Assembly: GCA_041659005.1 (NCBI GenBank)
Contig: JBAZZD010000003.1
Span: forward strand, 2,650-66,649
Origin: Minisyncoccota bacterium
GTDB taxonomy: Bacteria > Patescibacteriota > Minisyncoccia > UBA6257 > GWB1-50-10
Direction of reading: 5' to 3'
DNA length: 64,000 nucleotides
This document shows positions 1,347-64,000 of the stretch, in pieces. Under the pieces are notes generated by a model. It saw only the letters and a list, made by a program, of their open reading frames with translations, made no database searches and was not told the origin of the DNA. The translations under genes and the position numbers were made by a program. Position 1 is the first letter of the stretch, and every line of letters begins with the position of its first letter.

Positions 1347-3215
1347 TTATTTTGCAGTTACCGAATCGGCTGAAACTCCAAGATCTTTAAGAAGTTTATA
1401 AAACTCTTCTTGTTCAAGCGTTTCTTTTTCAATAAGCGCCGCCGCAACGCCATCAAGCGCTTTGCGATAGGTGGTCATTATTTTCCTTGCGGTTTGCAAT
1501 CCTTTTTGGAGATATTCATTAATTTCTCCATCAATAGTAGTTCCTACCGTTTCAGAATAATCTTTATCATTTCCAAATCCCCGCCCCAAAAATGTCATCT
1601 CTTGCCCCTTTCCATAGGCGCGTGGCCCAAGTTTTTCACTCATTCCATATTTTGTTACTAATAACTCTGCCATATCGGTTGCTTGCTGAATATCGCTCGA
1701 GGAACCAGTAGTGATATCTTTAAATACCGCCTGCTCAGCAGCGTATCCACCCAGTGAAACTGCAATATCTCCAACAAAGTCTGATTTTGTTCTTAAGTGT
1801 CGTTCTTCCATTGGAAGTTTTAGTGTGTATCCACCTGCCACGCCACGGCTTACCACAGAGACCTTATGTACTGGATCTGAATTTTTAATAATTGCCGCGA
1901 CAATTGCATGACCCGCTTCGTGGTATGCGGTCACTCGCTTTTCATGGTCGTTGATAATTCTATTCTTTCGTGCAGGACCAAGTAATACTTTTTCAATCGA
2001 ATCCAACAAGTCTTCTTGTTCAATAACTTTTCGATTATTTCTTGCGGCAAGAATCGCTGCTTCGTTCATTAGATTCGCAAGTTCCGCCCCAGCAAATCCT
2101 GGCGTACGAAGTGCAACCACATGAAGATCAGATGATTTTGAAAGCGGTTTTCCTTTTGAGTGAATGTGCAAAATATCTTCTCTGTCTTTTATATCCGGCA
2201 TATCGAGTATCACGCGTCTATCAAATCGTCCCGGACGAAGAAGCGCTTGATCAAGAACATCGGGTCTATTTGTTGCGGCAATAACAATCACGCTGGTATC
2301 CCGTTCAAACCCGTCCATCTCAACAAGAATCTGATTAAGCGTCTGTTCACGCTCATCGTGTCCACCGCCCATTCCCGTTCCTCGCTCGCGTCCCACTGCA
2401 TCAATTTCATCAATAAAAACAATTGCAGGTGCCGATTTCTTTGCCATTTGGAACAGGTCACGAACACGAGATGCCCCAACACCAACAAACATTTCGACAA
2501 ATTCTGATGCTGAAATATGGAAAAATGGAACGTCGGATTCTCCGGCAACAGCACGCGCAAGCATTGTTTTTCCGGTTCCGGGAGTTCCCATAAGAAGCAC
2601 CCCACGAGGAATTTTTGCTCCCATCGCATGGAATTTTTTTGGACTTTTTAAAAATTCAACAACCTCCCACAATTCTTCTTTTGCTTCTTTGAGTCCTGCG
2701 ACGTCTTTAAATAAAATTTTGTCTTTTAACGGAGAAAATAATCGAATATTCACCCTCCCAAAAGAAAATGCCTGACTTGCTCCACCTTTTGCTTGGCGAA
2801 GCATCCACCAAAGAATAAGTCCCATAATAACCAACGGAATAAGCGTCGGGAGAAGAACCCCCATCCAATATTTCGCCCCACCTTGATCTTCTATCTTTAT
2901 TTCAATCTTTCCCAATGTACTTGATGAAATTCCATAACTTGATAGGGTTTCTAAGATTCCAACTCCCTGTTCCTTTTTTGATTTTATTTTTGTCCCATCG
3001 TTCAGATCAAGCGTAAGGTTGTTTTCTTGTGCTGTTATTGTTTTTACTTCTCCGTTTGCTATTTTCTTTGCCACGTTGCTAATGCTTGTTTCTTCTGGTG
3101 CTTTTGATTGCGTATCAAGAATCGCCCCAAAAAGAAGTGTAGTAATAATAAGAAAGATGACCGCAAGTATAATATTTTTCCAAAGTGATTTCATTCTGTT
3201 AGAAATAGATCGCAA
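1347..3215 (-). CDS. ftsH: ATP-dependent zinc metalloprotease FtsH
   Basis: N-terminal TM, AAA Walker A GTPGTGKT, second region of homology, HEAGHA zinc motif. Confidence 0.92.
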
Positions 3216-3332
3216 TCATAAAAGAACGCGATTTTTTATTGTTGTTATAATTTCGACTTCGCATAATGTATATAATTCCCGTGAAACAAACATTGTTTCT
3301 GATGGAACGTTTTTTACTATACAGTAAAATAC

Positions 3333-3365
3333 AAAAAAAGAAACTCCGCCTATTCATAGGCGGAG
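3333..3365 (-). terminator. intrinsic terminator for the 3373-3951 gene
   Basis: Stem ctccgccta/taggcggag with T-run on minus strand immediately after the stop. Confidence 0.6.
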
Positions 3366-3372
3366 TAATTGT

Positions 3373-3951
3373 TTATTTATTTCGAGCTCCCAAAAAGAAG
3401 AGGGGGATATTTACATCCAATGATTCATAGTTATAAATTACAAGATAAAATTTTCCTTTTTTATCAATGAATAGAGACGGAGATATTTCTCCATCATTAT
3501 TTTCACGTTTTGCGACGGATGCGCCAGCGACGATGCAAACCATATTCATTCGAATTTTTTCTTCAAAAACAAGATCCATCAATTCACATCCAGTGCAATT
3601 TCGATACCCAAGAAAATTCATTTCTTTCCTCGCAAGTGCTTCTTGCCCTTTTAAGAAAGGGAATAATTTTATCATATATTTTCCCTTCACTTCATTTTTG
3701 TGCGGAAAATAATTAAGCTCTTTTTCGCCTAATGATTCTGATAAAAGCGACCGCATTGTTGCACGTCGCACAAGCTCTTGAAATGTTCCCTCTTTTGCTC
3801 GCACTAAAAAATTTAATCCCACTTCTTTTTGCAACATCTCAAAAATTTTGTCTTGTCCTCGAGAATCAAATGAAATAATTCTCGGTATAATAAATGAATA
3901 AACAAAATGAAAAATTCTATTCATTTTATTTCTCTCAGTCATCTCTCCCAT
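3373..3951 (-). CDS. hypothetical protein
   Basis: 192-aa ORF followed by terminator; weak CinA-like CTGC motif only. Confidence 0.4.
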   Translation of the reverse strand: MGEMTERNKMNRIFHFVYSFIIPRIISFDSRGQDKIFEMLQKEVGLNFLVRAKEGTFQELVRRATMRSLLSESLGEKELNYFPHKNEVKGKYMIKLFPFLKGQEALARKEMNFLGYRNCTGCELMDLVFEEKIRMNMVCIVAGASVAKRENNDGEISPSLFIDKKGKFYLVIYNYESLDVNIPLFFLGARNK

Positions 3952-3999
3952 GTCTTTTTCCTTTCAATTAATTGTTAATGAATATCTTTGTTGTACAGC

Positions 4000-4043
4000 A
4001 ACTCAAAAGAAAATACAACAAATCCCCTTAAAATAGGGGATTT
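4000..4043 (-). terminator. intrinsic terminator downstream of S1 gene
   Basis: Hairpin aatcccct/aggggatt followed on minus strand by T-rich tract. Confidence 0.55.
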
Positions 4044-4061
4044 GGGAAAATTATTATTTTC

Positions 4062-5150
4062 TTATTTCACTAATTTCAAATTTATTCTTCGCTCTTCTGG
4101 CTTGATACTTTCAACAACAAATGTGTATTCTTTTTGAGGTATTAATTCCTTTTTCATTTCCTCTGCTCCTCCGAAATCAGTTACGTGCACATATCCCTGT
4201 GTTTCTTTGTCTATATTTATTACCGCTCCAAATGGATTAAACATATACACTGTTCCTTGAACAGTTAATCCCTCTTTGTATCGCTCGGCACTTGCAGCCC
4301 AAGGATCTTCTTTTAATACCTTGATAGAAAGTGAAATTTTGCCATCTTTTATTTCCATTATTTTTGCCTTGATCACCTCATCAATCTTCACAATTTCTTT
4401 TGGGTTTTCTACAACACAATAATCAAGTTCCGACACGTGAATAAGGCCCTCAACTGATGGGTTGTCTACAAATTTCACAAACACTCCAAAATCAGCCACC
4501 CCTGAAACAATTGCTTCAATAACTTGCCCAACGGAGTAATTTTTTACTAACTCGCGAGAAGAAATTTCCACCGCTTCTTTTTCTGAGACAATGAGCTTTC
4601 CATTTCGTTGATTTGCATCAATTATTTTTACAATAATTTCTTCTCCAACAAGTTTTTGAAGTGCTGATGCAATATCTGTCCTGTCTCCTACGCCAATTTT
4701 AGGATAATGATCAATCGATAGTTGCGAAACAGGAAGAAACGCTCCTACTCCTCGAATATTTACAATAAGTCCACCCTTGTTGTATCCGGTTGGCTTAACA
4801 GCGAACGCTTCATCTTTCCCTTTCAGCTCATCAATCTCCTGCCACGCCTTCTGGCGCCCAGCTTCAGTAAGTGAAAGCTCAACATACCCTTCTCCATTAT
4901 CAATTTCAACAACCTTCCCATTAATTACCCCTCCACACTCAACAGATCTTACAAGATCACGCGCATTTTGTAATTCACCTCTATATACAACACCAGTCCC
5001 ATTCTTTCCAAGATCAAGAAGAATACGGTTCGAACTTTTTTCTATTATTTTTCCCTCCACAAGGTCTCCAACCTTCAAAGGGGAGAATAACTGAGGCGCA
5101 GTTTTTACTAATTGCGCGAGCATCAGCATTCCATTCTTTACTATATTCAT
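4062..5150 (-). CDS. rpsA: 30S ribosomal protein S1-like (multiple S1 RNA-binding domains)
   Basis: Repeated S1-domain signatures (GxVV.I...G..V.L, GLIHVSELD) across 362 aa. Confidence 0.65.
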   Translation of the reverse strand: MNIVKNGMLMLAQLVKTAPQLFSPLKVGDLVEGKIIEKSSNRILLDLGKNGTGVVYRGELQNARDLVRSVECGGVINGKVVEIDNGEGYVELSLTEAGRQKAWQEIDELKGKDEAFAVKPTGYNKGGLIVNIRGVGAFLPVSQLSIDHYPKIGVGDRTDIASALQKLVGEEIIVKIIDANQRNGKLIVSEKEAVEISSRELVKNYSVGQVIEAIVSGVADFGVFVKFVDNPSVEGLIHVSELDYCVVENPKEIVKIDEVIKAKIMEIKDGKISLSIKVLKEDPWAASAERYKEGLTVQGTVYMFNPFGAVINIDKETQGYVHVTDFGGAEEMKKELIPQKEYTFVVESIKPEERRINLKLVK

Positions 5151-11825: not shown

Positions 11826-13130
11826 ATGGAAAAAAAAACACATTTTATTCTTTATGGAATATTATTGCTAAGCATACTTCTTCATGCGTGGCGGCTTCCA
11901 ATACCAAGTCACGCCATGTTTGATGAGGTACATTACGCGACATACGCAGCTGATTATAGAACGAATACACCGTTTTTTGATGTACATCCTCCGCTTGGAA
12001 AATTTATCTATTCTATTCCACTCATTTTTTTGTCAAAGGAATCCTTAATAGAGTCACCATTTATTGAGCCTTCCCCAAATACACCAGTCGTATACAAGAT
12101 AACAAATCGTTCATTTTCAAGATTCCCATACATTCCACTCCGAATCACAAGCGCGTTTTTTGGAACCTTGTTGGTTCTTTCTGTATTTTTATTTATACGA
12201 GAGCTTACCAAAAGTAATACCATTGCACTACTTTCAGCATTTTTTGTAACACTAGAAAATTCAATTCTTGTTGAAACACGATTTATTTTTCTTGATGGTA
12301 TTTTTCTAACATTTTCGTTTTTAGCGCTGTGGCAATTTTTAAAACAAAAGGATTCTGGGGTCTACTCAGGAATTCTTTGGGGGTGCACACTTGCAACAAA
12401 GCTTGTTGGAATTATCTTTCTTCCATTTATTTTGTTTCAAAAAGTAGATTGGTGGAAAAAATGGAAATTTGTTACAGTAGGATTCTTTACTCTTGGAACT
12501 CTCTGGATCGGAATTCAATTATCTGCATTCCCAACAGATAAATGGTACGAATTTACAAAAATGGTCAATACTGATGTTGCAGAAACAATTCCGCACATTC
12601 CACAAAAATTATCTCTTGTAGATAAATCCGTGTTAAAAAGTTATCTTTTTTTGAATGAAATTTCTTGGTCCACAAATGGATACACCACAATTCAGGCGCA
12701 CAATCCATCAGAAAGCAAGTGGTTTGAGTGGCCATTTATGATCGGATCATTCTGTTATGGCGAACGCGCATTTCCTATCTGCCTAATTGGAAACCCAGCA
12801 TTGTGGGGATTTGGATTTTTAGCAGTTCTGTGGACAATCCTTTATATAGCAATTAAAAAACTGAGAAAACAAAAAGTAAGCACAATAGTAACATCTCTTT
12901 TTTTGGGATACGCATCCGTTCTCCTTCCTTTCGCAATAATTCCTCGTTATAAATTAATTTGGCAATATTTTCCCGCACTTATATTTTCGTTGTGTTTGGC
13001 TGCGTATTGGATTGTTACATACAACAATACATTAGGAAAAAGATATCGCATATTTTCTTATATACTACTCCTATCAATTGTGTGCCTTGGTTTCCTCTCT
13101 GTTTCTCCTACAACATTTGGAATTCGCTAG
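11826..13130 (+). CDS. GT39/PMT-family glycosyltransferase (dolichyl-phosphate-mannose protein mannosyltransferase / ArnT-like)
   Basis: DEVHY...DVHPPLGK motif near N-terminus, polytopic membrane protein; track ORF start at 11745 is read-through of the tRNA. Confidence 0.7.
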   Translation: MEKKTHFILYGILLLSILLHAWRLPIPSHAMFDEVHYATYAADYRTNTPFFDVHPPLGKFIYSIPLIFLSKESLIESPFIEPSPNTPVVYKITNRSFSRFPYIPLRITSAFFGTLLVLSVFLFIRELTKSNTIALLSAFFVTLENSILVETRFIFLDGIFLTFSFLALWQFLKQKDSGVYSGILWGCTLATKLVGIIFLPFILFQKVDWWKKWKFVTVGFFTLGTLWIGIQLSAFPTDKWYEFTKMVNTDVAETIPHIPQKLSLVDKSVLKSYLFLNEISWSTNGYTTIQAHNPSESKWFEWPFMIGSFCYGERAFPICLIGNPALWGFGFLAVLWTILYIAIKKLRKQKVSTIVTSLFLGYASVLLPFAIIPRYKLIWQYFPALIFSLCLAAYWIVTYNNTLGKRYRIFSYILLLSIVCLGFLSVSPTTFGIR

Positions 13131-14017
13131 GTCTTCTTCCTTTTTCTTCCATGGAATGCCTCATGAACCTCATGAAGCTCTTTATTGGTAAGATGGGTGT
13201 ACATTTGCGTCGTTGAAATGTTTGCATGCCCTAACATTTCTTGAACTGAACGGAGATCGGCTCCGTTTATTAATAGGTCGGTCGCGAATGAATGTCGAAG
13301 CTGATGGGGATGGACCCGTTTTGATATGCCCGCTTTCCGTGCATAAAAATCTACAAGACGTTGCACGGCACGAGGAATAATTCGTCCCGTAACACTTCCT
13401 GATCTTGAAAGTGATATAAATAATGCCTCCTCGGTATCGCCACGTTTATCTAGATACTCTTTTAAATTCTTTTTTGCAGAGTCTGAAATAAATACCACTC
13501 GCAACTTCTCTCCTTTTCCTCGCACTGAAAACTCACCACGACTAATATCAATATATCGACTCAACGAACAAAGTTCAGACACGCGAAGCCCAGTAGAAAA
13601 TAGCATCTCTAAGATTGCTCTGTCACGAAGAATGCGCAAAGATGCTCCTTCGGGAGCATTAAGTAATCGTTCTAGTTCTGCATAATCAAGCACTTCAATA
13701 TCACGCCGTGCGATTTTTGGAAGTTCTATTGTTTCTGGGGGCAATACTTTTATTCCACGTTTAATGCAATATTTCAAAAGATTTCTAATCGCAATAACAT
13801 AATAGCTTTGAGTTACTTTTTTTGTATTTTCACGAGAAAGTTGCACACGGAAACTCCGTACTGAAGTGTCGGTAATATCTGAGATTTTCTTGATCCCTTG
13901 ATCTCGCAAAAATCGAGAAAGATATCGTTCGTAATTTTCTCTTGTTTTAGGTGAACGATTTTTTTCAATTTCTAAATAATCAAGATATTCTTTTACAATT
14001 TTCTCTGCTTCATCCAT
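13127..14017 (-). CDS. tyrosine site-specific recombinase, XerC/XerD family
   Basis: N-terminal SAM-like core-binding domain, C-terminal R..HxxR...Y catalytic residues (RHSFATDLL, HANISTTQMYTHL). Confidence 0.78.
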   Translation of the reverse strand: MDEAEKIVKEYLDYLEIEKNRSPKTRENYERYLSRFLRDQGIKKISDITDTSVRSFRVQLSRENTKKVTQSYYVIAIRNLLKYCIKRGIKVLPPETIELPKIARRDIEVLDYAELERLLNAPEGASLRILRDRAILEMLFSTGLRVSELCSLSRYIDISRGEFSVRGKGEKLRVVFISDSAKKNLKEYLDKRGDTEEALFISLSRSGSVTGRIIPRAVQRLVDFYARKAGISKRVHPHQLRHSFATDLLINGADLRSVQEMLGHANISTTQMYTHLTNKELHEVHEAFHGRKRKKT

Positions 14018-18502: not shown

Positions 18503-19246
18503 ATGCGCAACGCGCAAAAAGAATGGAATCAAATTGCCGCGGAATACGATAAAAAAATCGTACGCGGTGATTTTTTTAGAAAAACAATTCTTGATCCAGC
18601 CCTTATTGGTGAAATGGGTGACGTAAATACACAAAAAATCCTTGATGCTGGTTGCGGGCAGGGATACTTTTCAAAGGTACTTTCTGATCTTGGGGCGCAC
18701 GTAGTCGGAATTGATGTTTCTGATTCGCTTATTACAATAGCGAACGATAGATATAAATCTTCCAACACACTTTCATTTCGTGAGTGTGATATGAATAAAT
18801 CACTTCCTTTCATTGACGACTATTTTGATGCCATCCTCTCAAACATGACGTTTATGGACATTGAGCATCCAGACGTTGCACTCAAAGAATTTGTGCGTGT
18901 AGGGAAAAATGGTGGAAGTATTATTGTCTCGATTCTCCATCCTATATTTACCAGTGGGAAAATATATACTCCTTTTATAGAATATATAAAAAGAAGAGAA
19001 TCATCATTTTTAATAAAACAATATAAAAAGCAGAGATCACTTGAATGGAATATACCTGGAACCACACACGCGACCACTACATTTCATCGTCCATTAGAAT
19101 ATTATATAAATCTCTTTTCTAAAAACATAACGCTCTCACATATGCACGAATTGACACTTCCCAATACACATAAAGAAAATGGTTTTTATAAAATGTTGCA
19201 TACAATTCCAATGTTCTTAATTCTTAAGGGGACTATCAACAAATAG
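18503..19246 (+). CDS. class I SAM-dependent methyltransferase
   Basis: ILDAGCGQGYFS motif I and downstream motifs. Confidence 0.7.
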   Translation: MRNAQKEWNQIAAEYDKKIVRGDFFRKTILDPALIGEMGDVNTQKILDAGCGQGYFSKVLSDLGAHVVGIDVSDSLITIANDRYKSSNTLSFRECDMNKSLPFIDDYFDAILSNMTFMDIEHPDVALKEFVRVGKNGGSIIVSILHPIFTSGKIYTPFIEYIKRRESSFLIKQYKKQRSLEWNIPGTTHATTTFHRPLEYYINLFSKNITLSHMHELTLPNTHKENGFYKMLHTIPMFLILKGTINK

Positions 19247-19286
19247 TGCATTTGCATTTGGGCGAGATACAAAGTATTTTAAATAT

Positions 19287-19628
19287 ATGAGTTTTTCAAA
19301 AGAACAAACAGAGGAGCTTAAAATAAAACTTCTCGAAGAAAAAAAGAGAATTCTTTCACACTTAAAAAGTGCAAAAAAGAGTTCTGGTTTTGGTGGGGGA
19401 GCCGAAGACCCTGAGGACGAGGCAGATGAGACAGAAGAGTTTGCAAATTATCTTGGCGTTGAACAGATTGAAGAAAATTCAATCCACGAAATTGACGTTG
19501 CGCTCGACAAAATGACTGATGGATCATACGGAATATGCGAACAGTGCGACCAAGACATTTCTTATGAATTACTTTCTATTCAACCAGAATCAAAGTTGTG
19601 TAAACAATGCAAACTTGCCGGAAAATAA
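19287..19628 (+). CDS. DksA/TraR-family C4-type zinc-finger protein
   Basis: CEQCDQ...CKQC four-Cys finger at C-terminus, acidic coiled-coil N-terminus. Confidence 0.65.
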   Translation: MSFSKEQTEELKIKLLEEKKRILSHLKSAKKSSGFGGGAEDPEDEADETEEFANYLGVEQIEENSIHEIDVALDKMTDGSYGICEQCDQDISYELLSIQPESKLCKQCKLAGK

Positions 19629-19631
19629 CTT

Positions 19632-21158
19632 ATGAGTGTTCCAAAGATTTTCTCTGCAGAACTCGAGGGAATTGACGCGGAACTTGTTGAGGTTGAGGCC
19701 GACTTACATGTCGGTCTCCATTCATTTAATATTGTCGGATTAGCAGATAAGGCGGTCTCAGAAGCAAAGGAACGAGTTGACTCAGCTTTAAAAAATTCAG
19801 GAATAAAACCTCCATCTAAAGAAAATAGAAAAATAACGATAAATCTCGCTCCCGCAGATACAAAAAAGGCTGGATCCCGTTTTGACCTCGCAATTGCACT
19901 TGCATATCTACTCGCAAGTGAACAGGTAAAACCATTTAATACAACAAAATCACTTTTTATTGGAGAATTATCACTTGATGGAACATTACGTCCTATTTCT
20001 GGCGCTTTAAATGTTGCACTTCTCACAAAACGGATTGGACTCACCTCATTATTTCTTCCGGCACAATGCGCAGAAGAAGCTGCTATTGTCGATGGAATTA
20101 CCATTTATCCAGTAAAAACGCTCTCTGAGCTTATTGAGCACATTGAAACAAGAAAACGAATACAATCACTAAAACATACTGCGGTTACCCAAGCCTATCC
20201 GCAAACAACAACAATGAGTGAAGTGCGCGGGCAAGAAGGGGCGAAACGTGCATTAACCATAGCAGCAGCTGGAGGACATAATGTACTTATGAGTGGCACG
20301 CCTGGAACGGGAAAAACGATGCTTGCAAACGCATTACAAAGCATACTTCCACTTCCATCACTAAAAGAACAGATTGAAATTACTAGTATTTGGAGTTCTG
20401 CTGGACTTACTCAGAGTCGCTCATATATTAAGAACCGCCCGTTTCGCGCCCCACATCACGGAGCGTCACCATCAGCAATTTTGGGAGGAGGAACAAATCC
20501 GCGAGCGGGAGAAATTAGTTTAGCCCATCGTGGCGTTCTGTTCCTTGATGAACTTCCAGAATTTCGTCGCGATGTATTAGAAGGACTTCGCCAACCACTT
20601 GAAGAGGGGAGAATATGTGTTGCTCGCGCGAAAAAGGCGCTTTCGTTTCCCGCACGATTTATACTTATTGGCGCGATGAATCCATGTCCATGTGGATATT
20701 TTGAATCAAACGAAAAAGAGTGTACGTGCACCGCGCATGATGTATTACGGTATCGTAAAAAACTTTCAGGACCTCTTCTTGATCGGTTTGATATTCACAT
20801 AACAGTTCCGCGCGTCCCCATTGAAGAGTTGCGGAGACCTCGAGAAGAGAATGACGATACACAATTTCGCTCATGTGTTGCTCGCGCACGAGAAATTCAA
20901 CAAAAACGATTTGAAAAGTCAGATCTTCCAATACACACAAATTCTGAAATGCGCTCAAAAGATACGGAATTATTCGCAAATCTTTCTGACGATGCTGAAT
21001 TATTTCTAAAAAAGATTCTCGAAAGAAATATCCTTTCCACTCGTGGATATTATAGGATACTTAAGGTTGCAAGAACTGTCGCCGACATTGAATCATCAGA
21101 AGAGATAAAAAAAGAACACCTTGCTGAGGCGTTCCAATATAGAATACAAAGTGACTAA
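19632..21158 (+). CDS. comM: YifB/ComM-family Mg-chelatase-like AAA+ ATPase
   Basis: N-terminal Lon-like domain, Walker A GTPGTGKT, ChlI-type sensor regions, C-terminal ComM domain. Confidence 0.85.
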   Translation: MSVPKIFSAELEGIDAELVEVEADLHVGLHSFNIVGLADKAVSEAKERVDSALKNSGIKPPSKENRKITINLAPADTKKAGSRFDLAIALAYLLASEQVKPFNTTKSLFIGELSLDGTLRPISGALNVALLTKRIGLTSLFLPAQCAEEAAIVDGITIYPVKTLSELIEHIETRKRIQSLKHTAVTQAYPQTTTMSEVRGQEGAKRALTIAAAGGHNVLMSGTPGTGKTMLANALQSILPLPSLKEQIEITSIWSSAGLTQSRSYIKNRPFRAPHHGASPSAILGGGTNPRAGEISLAHRGVLFLDELPEFRRDVLEGLRQPLEEGRICVARAKKALSFPARFILIGAMNPCPCGYFESNEKECTCTAHDVLRYRKKLSGPLLDRFDIHITVPRVPIEELRRPREENDDTQFRSCVARAREIQQKRFEKSDLPIHTNSEMRSKDTELFANLSDDAELFLKKILERNILSTRGYYRILKVARTVADIESSEEIKKEHLAEAFQYRIQSD

Positions 21159-21212
21159 ATCCCGTTAGAGATAATATAATTGAAAAATATTTCTAACAAG
21201 CCCAAATAAAAA

Positions 21213-31178: not shown

Positions 31179-31183
31179 ATGAT

Positions 31184-31195
31184 CCCGTTAGAGAC
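31184..31195 (+). repeat. 12-bp inverted-repeat arm (cccgttagagac) flanking GIY-YIG gene
   Basis: Reverse complement gtctctaacggg at 31444-31455. Confidence 0.7.
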
Positions 31196-31198
31196 TAT

Positions 31199-31459
31199 AT
31201 GCACTACGTATATATCTTACAGAGTGAGAAGAGTAATAGGTTCTATACTGGGTATACAGCAAATTTACGGAAACGTTTAAAAGAACACAATGAAAATAAA
31301 TCAAGATATACAAATAAAAGAGGTCCATTTATACTTGTCTATTATGAGGCATGTTGCGATGAATATGATGCAAGGTCGCGCGAAATCTATCTTAAATCAG
31401 GAATGGGTAAGCGGTTTATCAAAAACCGACTTAAACGTTTCCTGTCTCTAACGGGATGA
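31199..31459 (+). CDS. GIY-YIG nuclease domain protein (YhbQ/UPF0213-like)
   Basis: YVYILQSE...FYTGYTANLRKRLKEH matches GIY-YIG core; stop overlaps downstream ATG (ATGA). Confidence 0.8.
   Translation: MHYVYILQSEKSNRFYTGYTANLRKRLKEHNENKSRYTNKRGPFILVYYEACCDEYDARSREIYLKSGMGKRFIKNRLKRFLSLTG
31444..31455 (-). repeat. 12-bp inverted-repeat arm (partner of 31184-31195)
   Basis: gtctctaacggg directly abutting ATG of VirB4 ATPase ORF. Confidence 0.7.
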
Positions 31460-59216: not shown

Positions 59217-60569
59217 ATGGCTAAATTAACCTTCTGTGGTGCTGCAGGGACGGTTACCGGATCTAATTATCTTCTTGAGTCAGGAGACACAAAAATTCTT
59301 ATTGATTGTGGATTGTTTCAAGGATCGCATTTTTGTGAAGAGATGAATTACGATCCATTTTTGTTTAATCCAGAGGAAATTACTGCGGTATTCGTTACTC
59401 ATGCCCACATCGATCATATTGGACGCATACCAAAACTTTACAAAGAGGGATTCAGACAAAAAATTATTTCTACAGAACCGACAAGAGATATGGCAGAGGC
59501 ACTACTCCTTGATACCGAACACATACTTTTTATGGAAGCAGGAAAACATGCACCATTGTATGAGGTGGACGATGTAGAGAGAGTAATGCGTTTATGGGAA
59601 GGTGTTCCCTATCACAAACATATAAACATCGGGCCATTCCGTATCGAGTTTTATGATGCGGGCCATATTTTGGGATCATCCTCTATTCTTGTGGAGGTTG
59701 AGGGAAAGAAAATTGTGTTTTCTGGAGACTTGGGAAATGTTCCCGCGCCGTTTATTAATCCAACCGAGTTTATTGAGAATGCCGATTTTGTACTTATTGA
59801 ATCCACTTACGGAAATAGAGCCCACGAAAATATTGATAAAAGAAAAGAGGAGTTGGAGGAGACAATAAAAGAAACAGCAAAGAGGAGAGGTGTTGTAATG
59901 ATTCCTGCGTTTGCCCTTGAGCGAACACAAGAAATGATTTACGAATTAAATGAACTTGTAGAAAACAAAAAAATACACCGAATTCCCGTTTTTGTTGATA
60001 GTCCACTCGCAATCAGACTCACTGATGTGTATAGGAAGTATTCTGCAAATAAAATGTATTTTAATAAGGAGGCGCTTGGACTTATTAGAAAAGGGGATGC
60101 AATATTTAACTTTCCCGGTCTTTCACTTTCTTTGACCACCGAAGAATCAAAAGCAATTAATGATATTCCACCGCCAAAAGTAATTATTGCGGGGTCTGGT
60201 ATGTCACAAGGAGGACGAATTATTCATCATGAGAAACGGTATCTTTCTGACCCAAGAAGCTCAATCATTTTCGTTGGATATCAAACTAAAGAATCATTAG
60301 GACGAAAGATCCTTGATGGGGAGACAATGGTGCGAATTGCAAAAGAAGATGTGCCTGTTAGGGCAAAAATACGAGCGATTAGTGGATATTCAGCTCATGC
60401 CGATCAACCACAATTGTTGCACTGGGTCTCATATTTTAAAGAGCGCCCCAAAAAAGTTTTTGTTACACATGGGGAGCCAGAAAGTGCAGAGGTGCTTGCG
60501 ATAAAGATAAAAAGTGAATTTGGAATAGATGCCCAAGTTCCCCAACAAAAAGAAGTCGTGATATTATAA
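59217..60569 (+). CDS. beta-CASP family RNA-metabolising metallo-beta-lactamase nuclease
   Basis: HAHIDH motif, MBL + beta-CASP + RMMBL layout in 450 aa. Confidence 0.7.
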   Translation: MAKLTFCGAAGTVTGSNYLLESGDTKILIDCGLFQGSHFCEEMNYDPFLFNPEEITAVFVTHAHIDHIGRIPKLYKEGFRQKIISTEPTRDMAEALLLDTEHILFMEAGKHAPLYEVDDVERVMRLWEGVPYHKHINIGPFRIEFYDAGHILGSSSILVEVEGKKIVFSGDLGNVPAPFINPTEFIENADFVLIESTYGNRAHENIDKRKEELEETIKETAKRRGVVMIPAFALERTQEMIYELNELVENKKIHRIPVFVDSPLAIRLTDVYRKYSANKMYFNKEALGLIRKGDAIFNFPGLSLSLTTEESKAINDIPPPKVIIAGSGMSQGGRIIHHEKRYLSDPRSSIIFVGYQTKESLGRKILDGETMVRIAKEDVPVRAKIRAISGYSAHADQPQLLHWVSYFKERPKKVFVTHGEPESAEVLAIKIKSEFGIDAQVPQQKEVVIL

Positions 60570-62329: not shown

Positions 62330-63649
62330 ATGAACAAAGAAAAAACAGCACAATGGATGGCAATTCTCTCTCTTTTTTTAATTCCTTTCAATATAAAGAA
62401 ATTCATTACTTTATTGATTGGTAACGGCGAGTATTTTCCTCTTGAATTATCTAGCGCATTTTTGTATCTTTCAGAAATTTTCTCAATTTTTTTTATTCTT
62501 TTTGTGATAATTACGAAAAGAAAGGAATTTTTATTACTCTGTCGGTTGCTTTGGCCATTATTTTTATTGCTCGGGATTTCAATTATTTCAATCGCAATAA
62601 GCGACTCACTTCTGCTATCAATTGTTTCATGCGTGCACTTATTTTTTATAACACTCTTTACTGTTGCGGTCGCGACAGTAATCCACTCACAAATACTTTC
62701 AGTTCGTGACGCAATGAAAGTATTTGCCATTTCTGCGCTTTTACAGGCAGAAATTGCGATTTTGCAATTTGTTAATCAGGGATCAATCGGACTACATTTT
62801 TTTGGAGAAGAAACAATTAATGCGCTTACTCAAGGCGTTGCAAAGATTGAGGTGTTTGGATCAATTTTTATTCGTTCGTATGGAACATTTCCACACCCAA
62901 ACATACTTGGTGGATTTCTTGTCTTGGGAGTCATTGCGTGGATTTATCTTTTTTCTTCTCCATCAAAACGACATGGAGTGTTCCACCGGTCCACTTCTCT
63001 TATTGGGTTGTTTGTTGTTTTGCTTGGTCTTGTATTTTCATTCTCTCGGTCAGCTTGGATTGCAGCAATTGTTTCCTTCATTTTATGCATCATTATTCTT
63101 TTTAGTAAAAAAGAATATTCATCTGTTGCTCGAGAACTTGTTTTGAGCGGTATGATTTTTGGTGCCATATTACTTGGAATGGTTGGATGGGCCCTTGTTT
63201 CGAGGGGAACTATAAAAAATGATTCTGCAATAAATGAACGAAAGGTATACACATATATTGCAGTTGATATGATGGGCGAGTATCCGTTTGGTGTTGGAAT
63301 AGGAAATGGGATAGTCCGTGCGGAACAAGAGGGAAGATATGACGCATATGGCCTCGCGAGCAAAGCAACGCATCAACCAGTTCATAATATTTATTTACTT
63401 ATAGCCGAAGAGTTGGGAATTGTAGGAGTTATTGTTTTTCTTTTTTTCGTTGGGAATTTGTTTGTTATAAAAAAACAAAAAACACATCTTATTGATGTCT
63501 CATTTTTACTTGTTATGTTTGTCTCGTTTCTTTTTATTGGATTATTTGATCACTATCTACTTACGCTTAATGCGGGCCGATTGATGTTTTTTTCAATTTT
63601 AGGGATAATAGCCGGACTTTCTCTAAAGACAGAAAAAGAGCCCTTGTAG
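62330..63649 (+). CDS. O-antigen ligase-like (Wzy_C domain) polytopic membrane protein
   Basis: Multiple TMs with periplasmic loop and FSFSRSAWIAAIVSF helix typical of Wzy_C. Confidence 0.5.
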   Translation: MNKEKTAQWMAILSLFLIPFNIKKFITLLIGNGEYFPLELSSAFLYLSEIFSIFFILFVIITKRKEFLLLCRLLWPLFLLLGISIISIAISDSLLLSIVSCVHLFFITLFTVAVATVIHSQILSVRDAMKVFAISALLQAEIAILQFVNQGSIGLHFFGEETINALTQGVAKIEVFGSIFIRSYGTFPHPNILGGFLVLGVIAWIYLFSSPSKRHGVFHRSTSLIGLFVVLLGLVFSFSRSAWIAAIVSFILCIIILFSKKEYSSVARELVLSGMIFGAILLGMVGWALVSRGTIKNDSAINERKVYTYIAVDMMGEYPFGVGIGNGIVRAEQEGRYDAYGLASKATHQPVHNIYLLIAEELGIVGVIVFLFFVGNLFVIKKQKTHLIDVSFLLVMFVSFLFIGLFDHYLLTLNAGRLMFFSILGIIAGLSLKTEKEPL

Positions 63650-63711
63650 TTGAATGGATACAATACCTCCCTCCGAAGGAGGTGGTGCAGGTTCGATTCC
63701 TGCCAAGGGCA
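63640..63711 (+). tRNA. tRNA-Arg (anticodon CCG)
   Basis: Acceptor GCCCTTG/CAAGGGC, anticodon arm CCTCC-CTCCGAA-GGAGG, T-arm GCAGG-TTCGATT-CCTGC; overlaps last 10 nt of upstream CDS. Confidence 0.8.
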
Positions 63712-63925
63712 CAAAAGAAGCGAACCGTAGGCGCACGATAATAAGGAGTGGAACACGACTATATTATCGTAGCGTTTCGACTGAAAGGAGAAGCGATTTC
63801 CTGCCAAGGGCACAAAAGAAGCGAACCGTAGGCGCACGATAATAAGGAGTGGAACACGACTATATTATCGTAGCGTTTCGACTGAAAGGAGAAGCGATTT
63901 CCTGCCAAGCCTGCCTGCCGGTAGG
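63697..63925 (+). repeat. tandem repeat: about 100-bp unit x2 plus partial third copy, beginning inside the tRNA-Arg T-loop/3' acceptor and ending with a GC hairpin
   Basis: Unit ttcctgccaagggcacaaaagaagcgaaccgtaggcgcacgataataaggagtggaacacgactatattatcgtagcgtttcgactgaaaggagaagcgatt repeated at 63701 and 63801 (one extra t), third copy truncated at 63909. Confidence 0.85.
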
Positions 63926-64000
63926 CAGGGGCACACAACGCAGAACTCAACCGAGTGATTTAATTTACAATTTATAAATTTTCCGTCCTAGGCGCCTGCC

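Follow-up and report, generated by a model that had tools for sequence, protein, structure and literature searches.

A tandem array at the 3' end of a tRNA-Arg gene

The stretch analysed here (the window) comprises 64,000 nt of contig JBAZZD010000003.1 from a Minisyncoccota bacterium. It is low in GC, and the nearest public relatives of its genes are metagenome-assembled genomes (MAGs) of Parcubacteria (Paceibacterota). Close to its end, the tRNA-Arg(CCG) gene (63640–63712, plus strand) runs into a tandem array in which the tail of the tRNA alternates with a hairpin-forming module of ∼77 nt, hereafter module X. The tRNA gene is intact, has no encoded CCA, and scores 69.6 bits with the Rfam tRNA model; ARAGORN called it as one of three tRNA genes in the whole window, and no more. 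It is preceded on the plus strand by an open reading frame (ORF) of the O-antigen ligase family (Wzy_C; 62330–63649), taken from the ORF list and having homologs with PF04932. The last 10 nt of this ORF, TAG stop included, lie inside the tRNA gene, as the earlier note on this DNA had pointed out, and the overlap is kept in the related loci L078 and L080.

Tandem Repeats Finder reported a perfect repeat at 63697–63909 with a period of 101, 2.1 copies, 100% matches and no indels. The two full copies (63697–63797 and 63798–63898) are identical across 202 nt, and a third copy is only started: 11 nt match exactly (TTCCTGCCAAG, 63899–63909), or 15 nt if a 1-nt indel is allowed (CGATTTCCTGCCAAG, 63895–63909). 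The exact repeat begins at T59 of the T-loop, and homology to the tRNA begins at C56 when the indel is allowed. The 16-mer TTCCTGCCAAGGGCAC occurs twice against 0.01 expected; this, together with the 202-nt identity of the two units, excludes chance. The observation of a tandem array behind tRNA-Arg(CCG) is thus confirmed, with small corrections. Its start in the T-loop, its two full copies and the 9-bp hairpin arms in both units (ACGATAATA/TATTATCGT) are as first described, whereas the period is 101 and not 100, and the truncated third copy amounts to 11 or 15 nt.

Each unit is made up of the last 19–20 nt of the tRNA (CGATT(T)CCTGCCAAGGGCAC), four A's and X, after which comes the next copy of the tRNA tail. 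All parts lie on the plus strand. The first copy of the direct repeat is within the tRNA itself, from C56 of the T-loop to the 3' end (63694–63712, CGATTCCTGCCAAGGGCAC). The first copy of X (63717–63793; 107.6 bits with a covariance model) has the left end GAAGCGAACC, an inverted copy of the T-loop, and the right end ...GGAGAAG, with the arms of its long hairpin at 63735–63743 and 63762–63770. The second copy of the direct repeat (63794–63813, CGATTTCCTGCCAAGGGCAC) has one extra T and forms the junction of the tandem duplication, a junction that is absent from the related contig L025. It is followed by a second, identical copy of X (63818–63894). Finally, a displaced 3' fragment of the tRNA appears in two parts, CGATTTCCTGCCAAG (63895–63909; arranged likewise in L025) and GGCAC (63930–63934; matched against 63708–63712), which add up to a complete tRNA tail split by 20 nt. 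The interrupting sequence, CCTGCCTGCCGGTAGGCAGG (63910–63929), had been taken for a GC hairpin that closes the array. The hairpin is present, but it is really a near-perfect palindrome of 10 + 10 nt, CCTGCCTGCC|GGTAGGCAGG, inserted separately and precisely in the displaced acceptor 3' strand. Beyond the fragment, 63935–63978 is the native trailer of the tRNA, orthologous to the sequence directly after the tRNA in L078, and 63979–64000 holds the start of an older hairpin module, Y (TTTTCCGTCCTAGGCG), and the first 6 nt of a second copy of the palindrome, both of which run off the window end.

There is no plausible ORF within the 101-nt unit; the small ORFs across it were examined and rejected, as they read through the tRNA or have no proper start. 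Rfam 15 gave no family match beyond tRNA, all other matches being far below threshold, and a scan of the window found no terminator-like site inside the array. An array of clustered regularly interspaced short palindromic repeats (CRISPR) or of tandem interspaced guide RNAs (TIGR) was also considered and rejected, since the units are identical, 101 nt long and devoid of a variable segment.

Empty sites in related genomes

Syntenic loci were retrieved by searches with the neighbouring proteins of the window. In L078 and L079, whose ligase is 79% identical to that of the window, and in L080–L083 (74%), tRNA-Arg(CCG) runs directly into a trailer or a terminator and no X is present; in L002 a terminator lies directly 3' of the tRNA, again without X. 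Because the syntenic relatives L078, L080 and L002 have the same tRNA without it, X is an insertion. Moreover, the L078 trailer (…CACTCGACCAAGTGATTTTAATTTACAATTTATAAATTTTCCGCCCTAGGCG…) aligns with 63945–64000 of the window, i.e. with the sequence past the displaced fragment, which places the insertion, consisting of tRNA tail, X and first palindrome, between the body of the tRNA and the trailer native to it. The locus also carries the signature of genomic islands, an intact tRNA with a co-oriented displaced 3' fragment (63694–63712 compared with 63794–63813 and with 63895–63909 plus 63930–63934). The empty sites and the orthologous trailer hence support the proposal, made from the window alone, that the repeated tRNA 3' end is an insertion footprint. 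The neighbouring MBL-fold protein (59217–60566 in the window) is 90% identical in L001, and the insertion took place in the lineage of the window and L001.

Copy number differs between close relatives

Contig L025, a 1.6-kb metagenome contig, is identical to the window across the region minus one 101-nt unit. L001, the closest species, has 1.6 units with a period of 100, the second unit being ended by unique sequence before murB. Close relatives thus carry 1.1 (L025), 1.6 (L001) and 2.1 (window) units, from which we conclude that copy number is unstable in this clade. The extra junction in the window combines the extra T from the fragment side with GGCACAAAA from the tRNA side; the exchange therefore lay within the 11-nt identity TTCCTGCCAAG common to the tRNA and the displaced fragment. 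Identical head-to-tail units, with a junction in a short direct repeat already present in the single-copy allele L025, are the pattern of unequal recombination or slippage, and by this comparison the second unit appears to be a strain-level duplication. Slippage or successive events had been suggested for the amplification, and the one-unit difference from the near-identical L025 agrees with this. A 42.6-kb contig of another relative (L084, 4318–4352; ligase 64% identical) stops inside tRNA-Arg, which fits an assembly break at a variable or repeated site.

Module X at other tRNA genes

Public metagenome contigs were scanned with one exact 22-mer from the X hairpin loop, and four contigs matched, one of them L025. 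In other Parcubacteria, X lies behind tRNA-Leu(TAA) (L026), tRNA-Arg(GCG) (L027) and a tRNA-Gly(GCC)-like fragment (L024), which brings the different tRNA genes or fragments with X to at least four, and it always has the orientation of the tRNA. Directly 3' of X in L024, L026 and L027 comes CGAWTCC, and the T-stem and acceptor 3' strand that come next are those of the local tRNA. Among the five distinct sequences of X, the mean column identity is 93% and the covariance-model scores are 105–115 bits. A covariance model found no X copies beyond those known in 453 kb of Parcubacteria DNA, which implies a family of very low copy number.

The surroundings of X are more variable than X itself. What separates X from its tRNA is a terminator in L024 and L026 and a terminator together with module Y in L027; the window and L001 have nothing there. 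The flanking repeat measures 15–20 nt in the window, L001 and L024, 28 nt in L026 and ∼65 nt in L027, where it extends through the terminator. Two further inserts were found at tRNA genes. In L026, tRNA-Ser(TGA) (1190–1490) is followed by a 125-nt insert with the end motifs of X (GGAATTCGAACC…GAGAGG|CGAATCC) and a 56-nt repeat, which we call X2; in L006, tRNA-Ile(TAT) (20980–21192, minus strand) has a 117-nt insert with a 22-nt repeat of the stretch from T-loop to 3' end. All these inserts, like X, are hairpin-rich. In all X and X2 loci the fragment starts at C56 to T59 of the T-loop, the canonical T-stem/loop sublocation. L026 also contains a large serine recombinase-like ORF (2493–4115, minus strand; resolvase-type N-terminus, recognized by eye) beside a tRNA-Ser(GCT)/tRNA-Leu(TAA) pair; it is located upstream of the X-bearing tRNA cluster, outside the insert.

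The left end of X is an inverted copy of T-loop positions 52–61, and its right end is identical to positions 56–62. In six of six cases the left end of X or X2 fits the local T-loop variant (A or T at 59): it is GATTCGAACC where the tRNA has TTCGAATCC, and GAA[T/G]CGAACC where the tRNA has TTCGATTCC. The right junction is always without T54–T55 (…GAGAGG|CGAWTCC). The two ends pair as GAAUCG/CGAUUC over 6–9 bp, imperfectly in the window, and the right arm belongs at the same time to the tRNA-derived repeat. Three known types of sequence were compared with X and set aside. Inspection of both strands by eye for a tRNA-like or split-tRNA structure revealed neither an acceptor partner nor a T-stem partner, and removal of the palindrome (not of X) from the window produced no new tRNA around that copy. 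An integron attC-like core site does not fit: the T-loop has GTTCGAT in place of GTTRRRY, and TT is missing from the junction. Insertions of the IS91, IS200/IS605 or helitron type were rejected because such elements make no long target repeats.

Origin of the array

We consider it rather probable that the array is a miniature insertion, devoid of an integrase, that entered the T-loop site of tRNA-Arg(CCG) and was duplicated once more in this strain. The empty sites in relatives, the recurrence of X with locally matching repeats at several tRNAs, the lack of any gene in the interval and the copy-number change through the 11-nt identity are observed facts that speak for it, as do the inserts of like build at other tRNAs, the consensus fold of X (described below) and the lack of an integrase nearby; the mechanism is deduced. 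X would owe its position to a recombination or transposition activity that is directed to the T-loop and supplied in trans, and the most likely candidate would be a tyrosine integrase of the T-loop-site type, with X as a conserved arm beside the attachment site. We favour such a trans-acting recombinase since the T-loop sublocation and the displaced fragment are both hallmarks of tyrosine integrases. Integrative elements are recognizable by a regenerated tRNA gene and a displaced 3' fragment, and the attP lies in the T-stem region in 1836 of 3919 mapped islands (PMC4383910); in addition, a change in the attP core of Ms6 retargets one integrase to other tRNA T-loops (PMC1762012). The tandem copy may then have arisen from the flanking repeats, through unequal crossing-over or through slippage during replication. 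X would be read through as a 3' trailer of the tRNA, with no demonstrated host function, and the 20-nt GC palindrome would be a later, independent insertion in the non-functional displaced fragment.

Several points weigh against this interpretation. The sample is small, ∼five independent loci obtained with one exact 22-mer, and is biased to conserved copies. The difference between 2.1 and 1.1 units rests on two metagenome assemblies, either of which may mis-count identical 101-nt units. A 100-bp circle is implausible as a substrate of a tyrosine recombinase. With a flanking repeat of 15 to ∼65 nt and an insert whose left part varies, the loci show no fixed att core, and the six X loci contain neither an integrase gene nor a full-length X-bearing element. 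Finally, simple Campbell integration does not predict the inverted T-loop copy at the left end of X; this copy could result from hairpin-templated correction between the arms or from a need for the closing stem.

X might instead be a functional structured RNA in the 3' trailer of some tRNA genes, with a role in processing, stability or regulation, that was spread by T-loop recombination and that includes the duplicated tRNA tail. Its consensus fold has 29 pairs, arranged in a closing stem, a long hairpin of ∼20 bp and a short hairpin. Folding is better on the tRNA-sense strand (z = −4.6) than on the opposite one (z = −2.4), and four pairs carry compensatory changes on both sides, including ACGATAATA/TATTATCGT to ACAATAATA/TATTATTGT in L001. 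The closing stem, in which the left end GAWUCG pairs with the T-loop copy CGAWUC at the right end, uses this copy and covaries with it. The constant orientation of X relative to the tRNA, and the lack of a terminator between the two in the window, also agree with a role in the transcript. However, the covariation comes from five sequences only, X sits past an intrinsic-terminator-like hairpin in L026 and L027, and no Rfam family matches it. Moreover, close relatives with the same tRNA live without X, the tail is split by the 20-nt palindrome in three of six cases and the copy number is unstable. A functional RNA is, in our opinion, an unlikely explanation.

Another explanation that we judge improbable starts from ordinary large, integrase-bearing islands or prophages at T-loop sites, of which X and its flanks would be what independent deletions left behind, X being a conserved P arm that is now immobile. 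The regenerated tRNA with its displaced 3' fragment is the signature of such islands (PMC4383910), and the variation at the left of the insert, where there is no extra sequence, a terminator, or a terminator and Y, would be natural for remnants. Downstream of the same tRNA, the lineage of the window also has an older and decayed copy of Y plus an X-like stretch, shared with L078; the pattern is like that of streamlined genomes in which repeated integration drives older elements outward (10.1101/2020.12.28.424599). However, independent deletions would not all stop exactly at the left end of X, and none of the six X loci retains an integrase fragment. The core and ends of X gave no matches in viral contigs, or chance matches inside coding sequence, and BLAST searches of phage and plasmid collections gave no match.

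A history free of mobile elements, in which a short repeat present by chance was merely duplicated by local slippage or multiplied in the assembly, is very unlikely to explain the tandem array. Speaking for it are the 100% identity of the units, a 101-nt period near common read lengths, the single unit assembled in L025 and the break of the related contig L084 within this tRNA. Yet the single-copy state already has the insert and the displaced tRNA fragment, relatives have empty sites, X recurs at other tRNAs and L001 independently has 1.6 copies ending in unique sequence. As an account of the origin of the unit this proposal is already refuted. Nor does the alternative set by the earlier note hold, that a core-genome downstream region and a repeat absent elsewhere would make the array a plain local duplication; the recurrence of X at other tRNAs speaks against it.

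The idea that a prophage or integrative element begins past the window end, with the array as its attL region, is hardly credible: the tRNA 3'-end repeat does lie at the window edge and the DNA does continue (a contig with a 100%-identical ligase is 82.9 kb long), but L025 goes on for ∼1 kb into the gene for uracil-DNA glycosylase (UDG), and the 6 kb downstream in L078 and L080–L083 encode UDG, a small ORF, ClpB, MFS, NUDIX, L20, L35 and IF3 in conserved order. No integrase or phage genes were found in either the ∼1 kb of L025 or the 6 kb of L078 and L080–L083. The mobile element once suspected beyond position 64000 is thus replaced by module Y and then core genes.

Comparison with known systems

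Returning to the miniature insertion at the T-loop, its closest parallels are the T-loop islands mapped by Islander (PMC4383910) and Ms6 (PMC1762012). They share with X the order of intact tRNA, insert and co-oriented fragment from T-loop to 3' end, the empty sites in relatives, and one recombination logic that serves different tRNAs. In contrast to them, the X interval is 101–200 nt long and has no integrase or ORF, its repeat length is variable, and the left end of the insert bears an inverted T-loop copy. Cis-mobilizable elements (CIMEs) and their accretion (PMC5704250), as well as the tycheposons of Prochlorococcus (10.1101/2020.12.28.424599), are likewise integrase-less with att-type repeats at their borders, and they form tandem arrangements parted by partial tRNA copies in which older copies are pushed away from the tRNA. 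However, those elements span kilobases and bear genes, whereas the X unit is as a whole a hairpin module of ∼80 nt, and for its tandem copy unequal recombination in the 11-nt identity is the simpler explanation.

X also resembles miniature inverted-repeat transposable elements (MITEs) and repetitive extragenic palindromic (REP)-type repeats, in that it is small, non-coding and hairpin-forming, and is present or absent between relatives; the short, in the window imperfect, pairing of its ends may correspond to terminal inverted repeats, and the 20-nt palindrome acts as a very small dispersed palindromic repeat of the REP type. Unlike MITEs, X has no target duplication of fixed length, occupies one locus in the 453 kb searched, and has no related insertion sequence or transposase among the sequences found. 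The palindrome differs from both groups, as it inserts without target duplication, is not genome-wide here (two copies in 64 kb) and has no associated gene that we could find.

On the reading favoured here, X is a new, very small, integrase-less variant of tRNA-site insertion, a kind already known. There is a small chance that the novelty goes further, and that X, X2 and the L006 insert represent an undescribed class of ∼80–125-nt hairpins homing to the T-loop of any Parcubacteria tRNA gene without a recombinase of their own, with the palindrome CCTGCCTGCCGGYRGGCAGG among the smallest mobile sequences known. The two ends of such hairpins would each read one strand of the T-loop, and both track its local A/T variant as a structure- or RNA-guided insertion system would. 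If the miniature insertion is real, streamlined genomes of the candidate phyla radiation (CPR) bear tRNA-site footprints cut down to a single ∼80-nt module that is still moving or spreading between tRNA genes, and island finders that need an integrase would overlook such footprints entirely. Since they are unstable, with one to two copies in near-identical strains, they can break metagenome assemblies at tRNA genes.

A 20-nt palindrome inserted in tRNA-like DNA

The palindrome that splits the displaced fragment belongs to a family with the sequence CCTGCCTGCCGGYRGGCAGG; its second copy in the window is the one of which the first 6 nt lie at 63995–64000. Wherever an uninterrupted matching copy allows comparison, the palindrome is a precise insertion, with no target duplication and an ambiguity of ≤1 nt. 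It splits the displaced acceptor strand at nearly the same position in the window, L026 and L027, the adjoining intact tRNA being without palindrome, and it splits module Y in L025 and L078 but not in L027. Other Parcubacteria loci with the palindrome are L009 (5712–5767) and L020 (3645–3664). In L009 (5704–5800) there are two tandem 36-nt units of the form 'ctaataag + palindrome + ctaaacag', followed by flank copies without the palindrome. A TIGR array was considered for this locus, as TIGR units are 36 nt long with box C/D motifs (PMC12045711); the period of 36 nt fits, but the reading was rejected because the locus has no box C/D motifs or variable spacers.

In L017, the palindrome (19008–19027) lies inside a duplicated 5' fragment of tRNA-Ser(GCT), GGAGAGTTGGCTGAGT[palindrome]GGTCGAAAG. 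The region 18983–19385 of this locus consists of the 5' fragment, an 80-aa GIY-YIG ORF (Pfam E = 1.5e-17) and then the intact tRNA-Ser. This arrangement is, on the 5' side of a tRNA, the equivalent of the X architecture, and its cargo is a nuclease gene.

The palindrome is also present in 48 stretches of viral-classified contigs (L028–L075) ranging from 33 to 70% GC. Two composition-matched control palindromes were found in 1 and 2 stretches of the viral contigs, which corresponds to an enrichment of about 25–50-fold. In L059 (∼2240–2330) it occupies the variable loop of an otherwise intact tRNA-Met(CAT) (palindrome at 2284–2303), and ARAGORN calls this tRNA with or without it, at 92 versus 72 nt. 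In or near tRNA sequences of viral contigs it also occurs at L030 8616–8635, L070 515–534 and L045 339–358; such sites include the D-loop of a tRNA-Lys-like 5' part and a site beside a T-arm. No protein family is common to the neighbourhoods of the palindrome (within 2.5 kb) beyond phage structural genes of related contigs, and a literature search with its two 12-mer halves yielded no relevant paper. It is a reasonable inference that the palindrome prefers tRNA-like or hairpin DNA and persists only where it is harmless, in dead fragments or a variable loop. Its precise insertions lie in tRNA fragments, in the variable loop of a phage tRNA and in other hairpins, and it may insert in this way, without target duplication, in very different genomes. 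This by-product of the analysis may outweigh the array in importance, the array alone being of modest interest.

Neighbouring genes and a possible older insertion

A promoter-like site (TTGATG-17-GATAAT, 63581–63609, plus strand) precedes the tRNA; it comes from a consensus scan only and is alone not significant. Within 6 kb upstream of the array, the genes encode a Mur ligase, the MBL-fold protein, an LDcluster4 (PF18306) protein, a permease and the O-antigen ligase, and no integrase is among them. These labels were taken from precomputed Pfam annotations of the orthologues in L078 and L080–L083, and that of the permease from the orthologue in L084. The only tyrosine recombinase in the window is Xer-like (13127–14017) and lies 50 kb from the array.

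The DNA past position 64000 was deduced from L025 and the syntenic relatives. In L025, the window end is followed by module Y split by the second palindrome copy, a decayed X-like stretch and then the UDG gene. Module Y (TTTTCCGTCCTAGGCG GATCAGCCTTGGGCTGACAATTTT) forms two small hairpins and is found in L025 (1100–1180, minus strand), L078 (7420–7520) and L027 (4720–4775, minus strand). It precedes X in L027 and the decayed X-like stretch (GAATCGAACTGGGAAAAGAG) in the lineage of the window. This order suggests that Y and the decayed stretch may be an older insertion at the same tRNA, common to L078.

Distant relatives have murB between the tRNA and UDG. The gene after the tRNA varies: L001 (14640–14720) and L085 have a full murB, the window, L025 and L078 have none, and L080 (7205–7420) has an N-terminal remnant of murB fused to UDG. 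In L085 (4400–4610), a GC-rich stretch of ∼150 nt past the tRNA ends in a degenerate T-arm-like sequence.

Elsewhere in the window, at 31182–31457, the inverted repeats ATCCCGTTAGAGAC and GTCTCTAACGGGAT, perfect over 14 nt, bound an 86-aa GIY-YIG ORF (31199–31459, Pfam E = 6.6e-17). The ORF fits so tightly between its two neighbouring genes that the right repeat provides the AT of the ATG of the downstream gene. With its inverted repeats, this ORF looks like a tiny mobile nuclease cassette.

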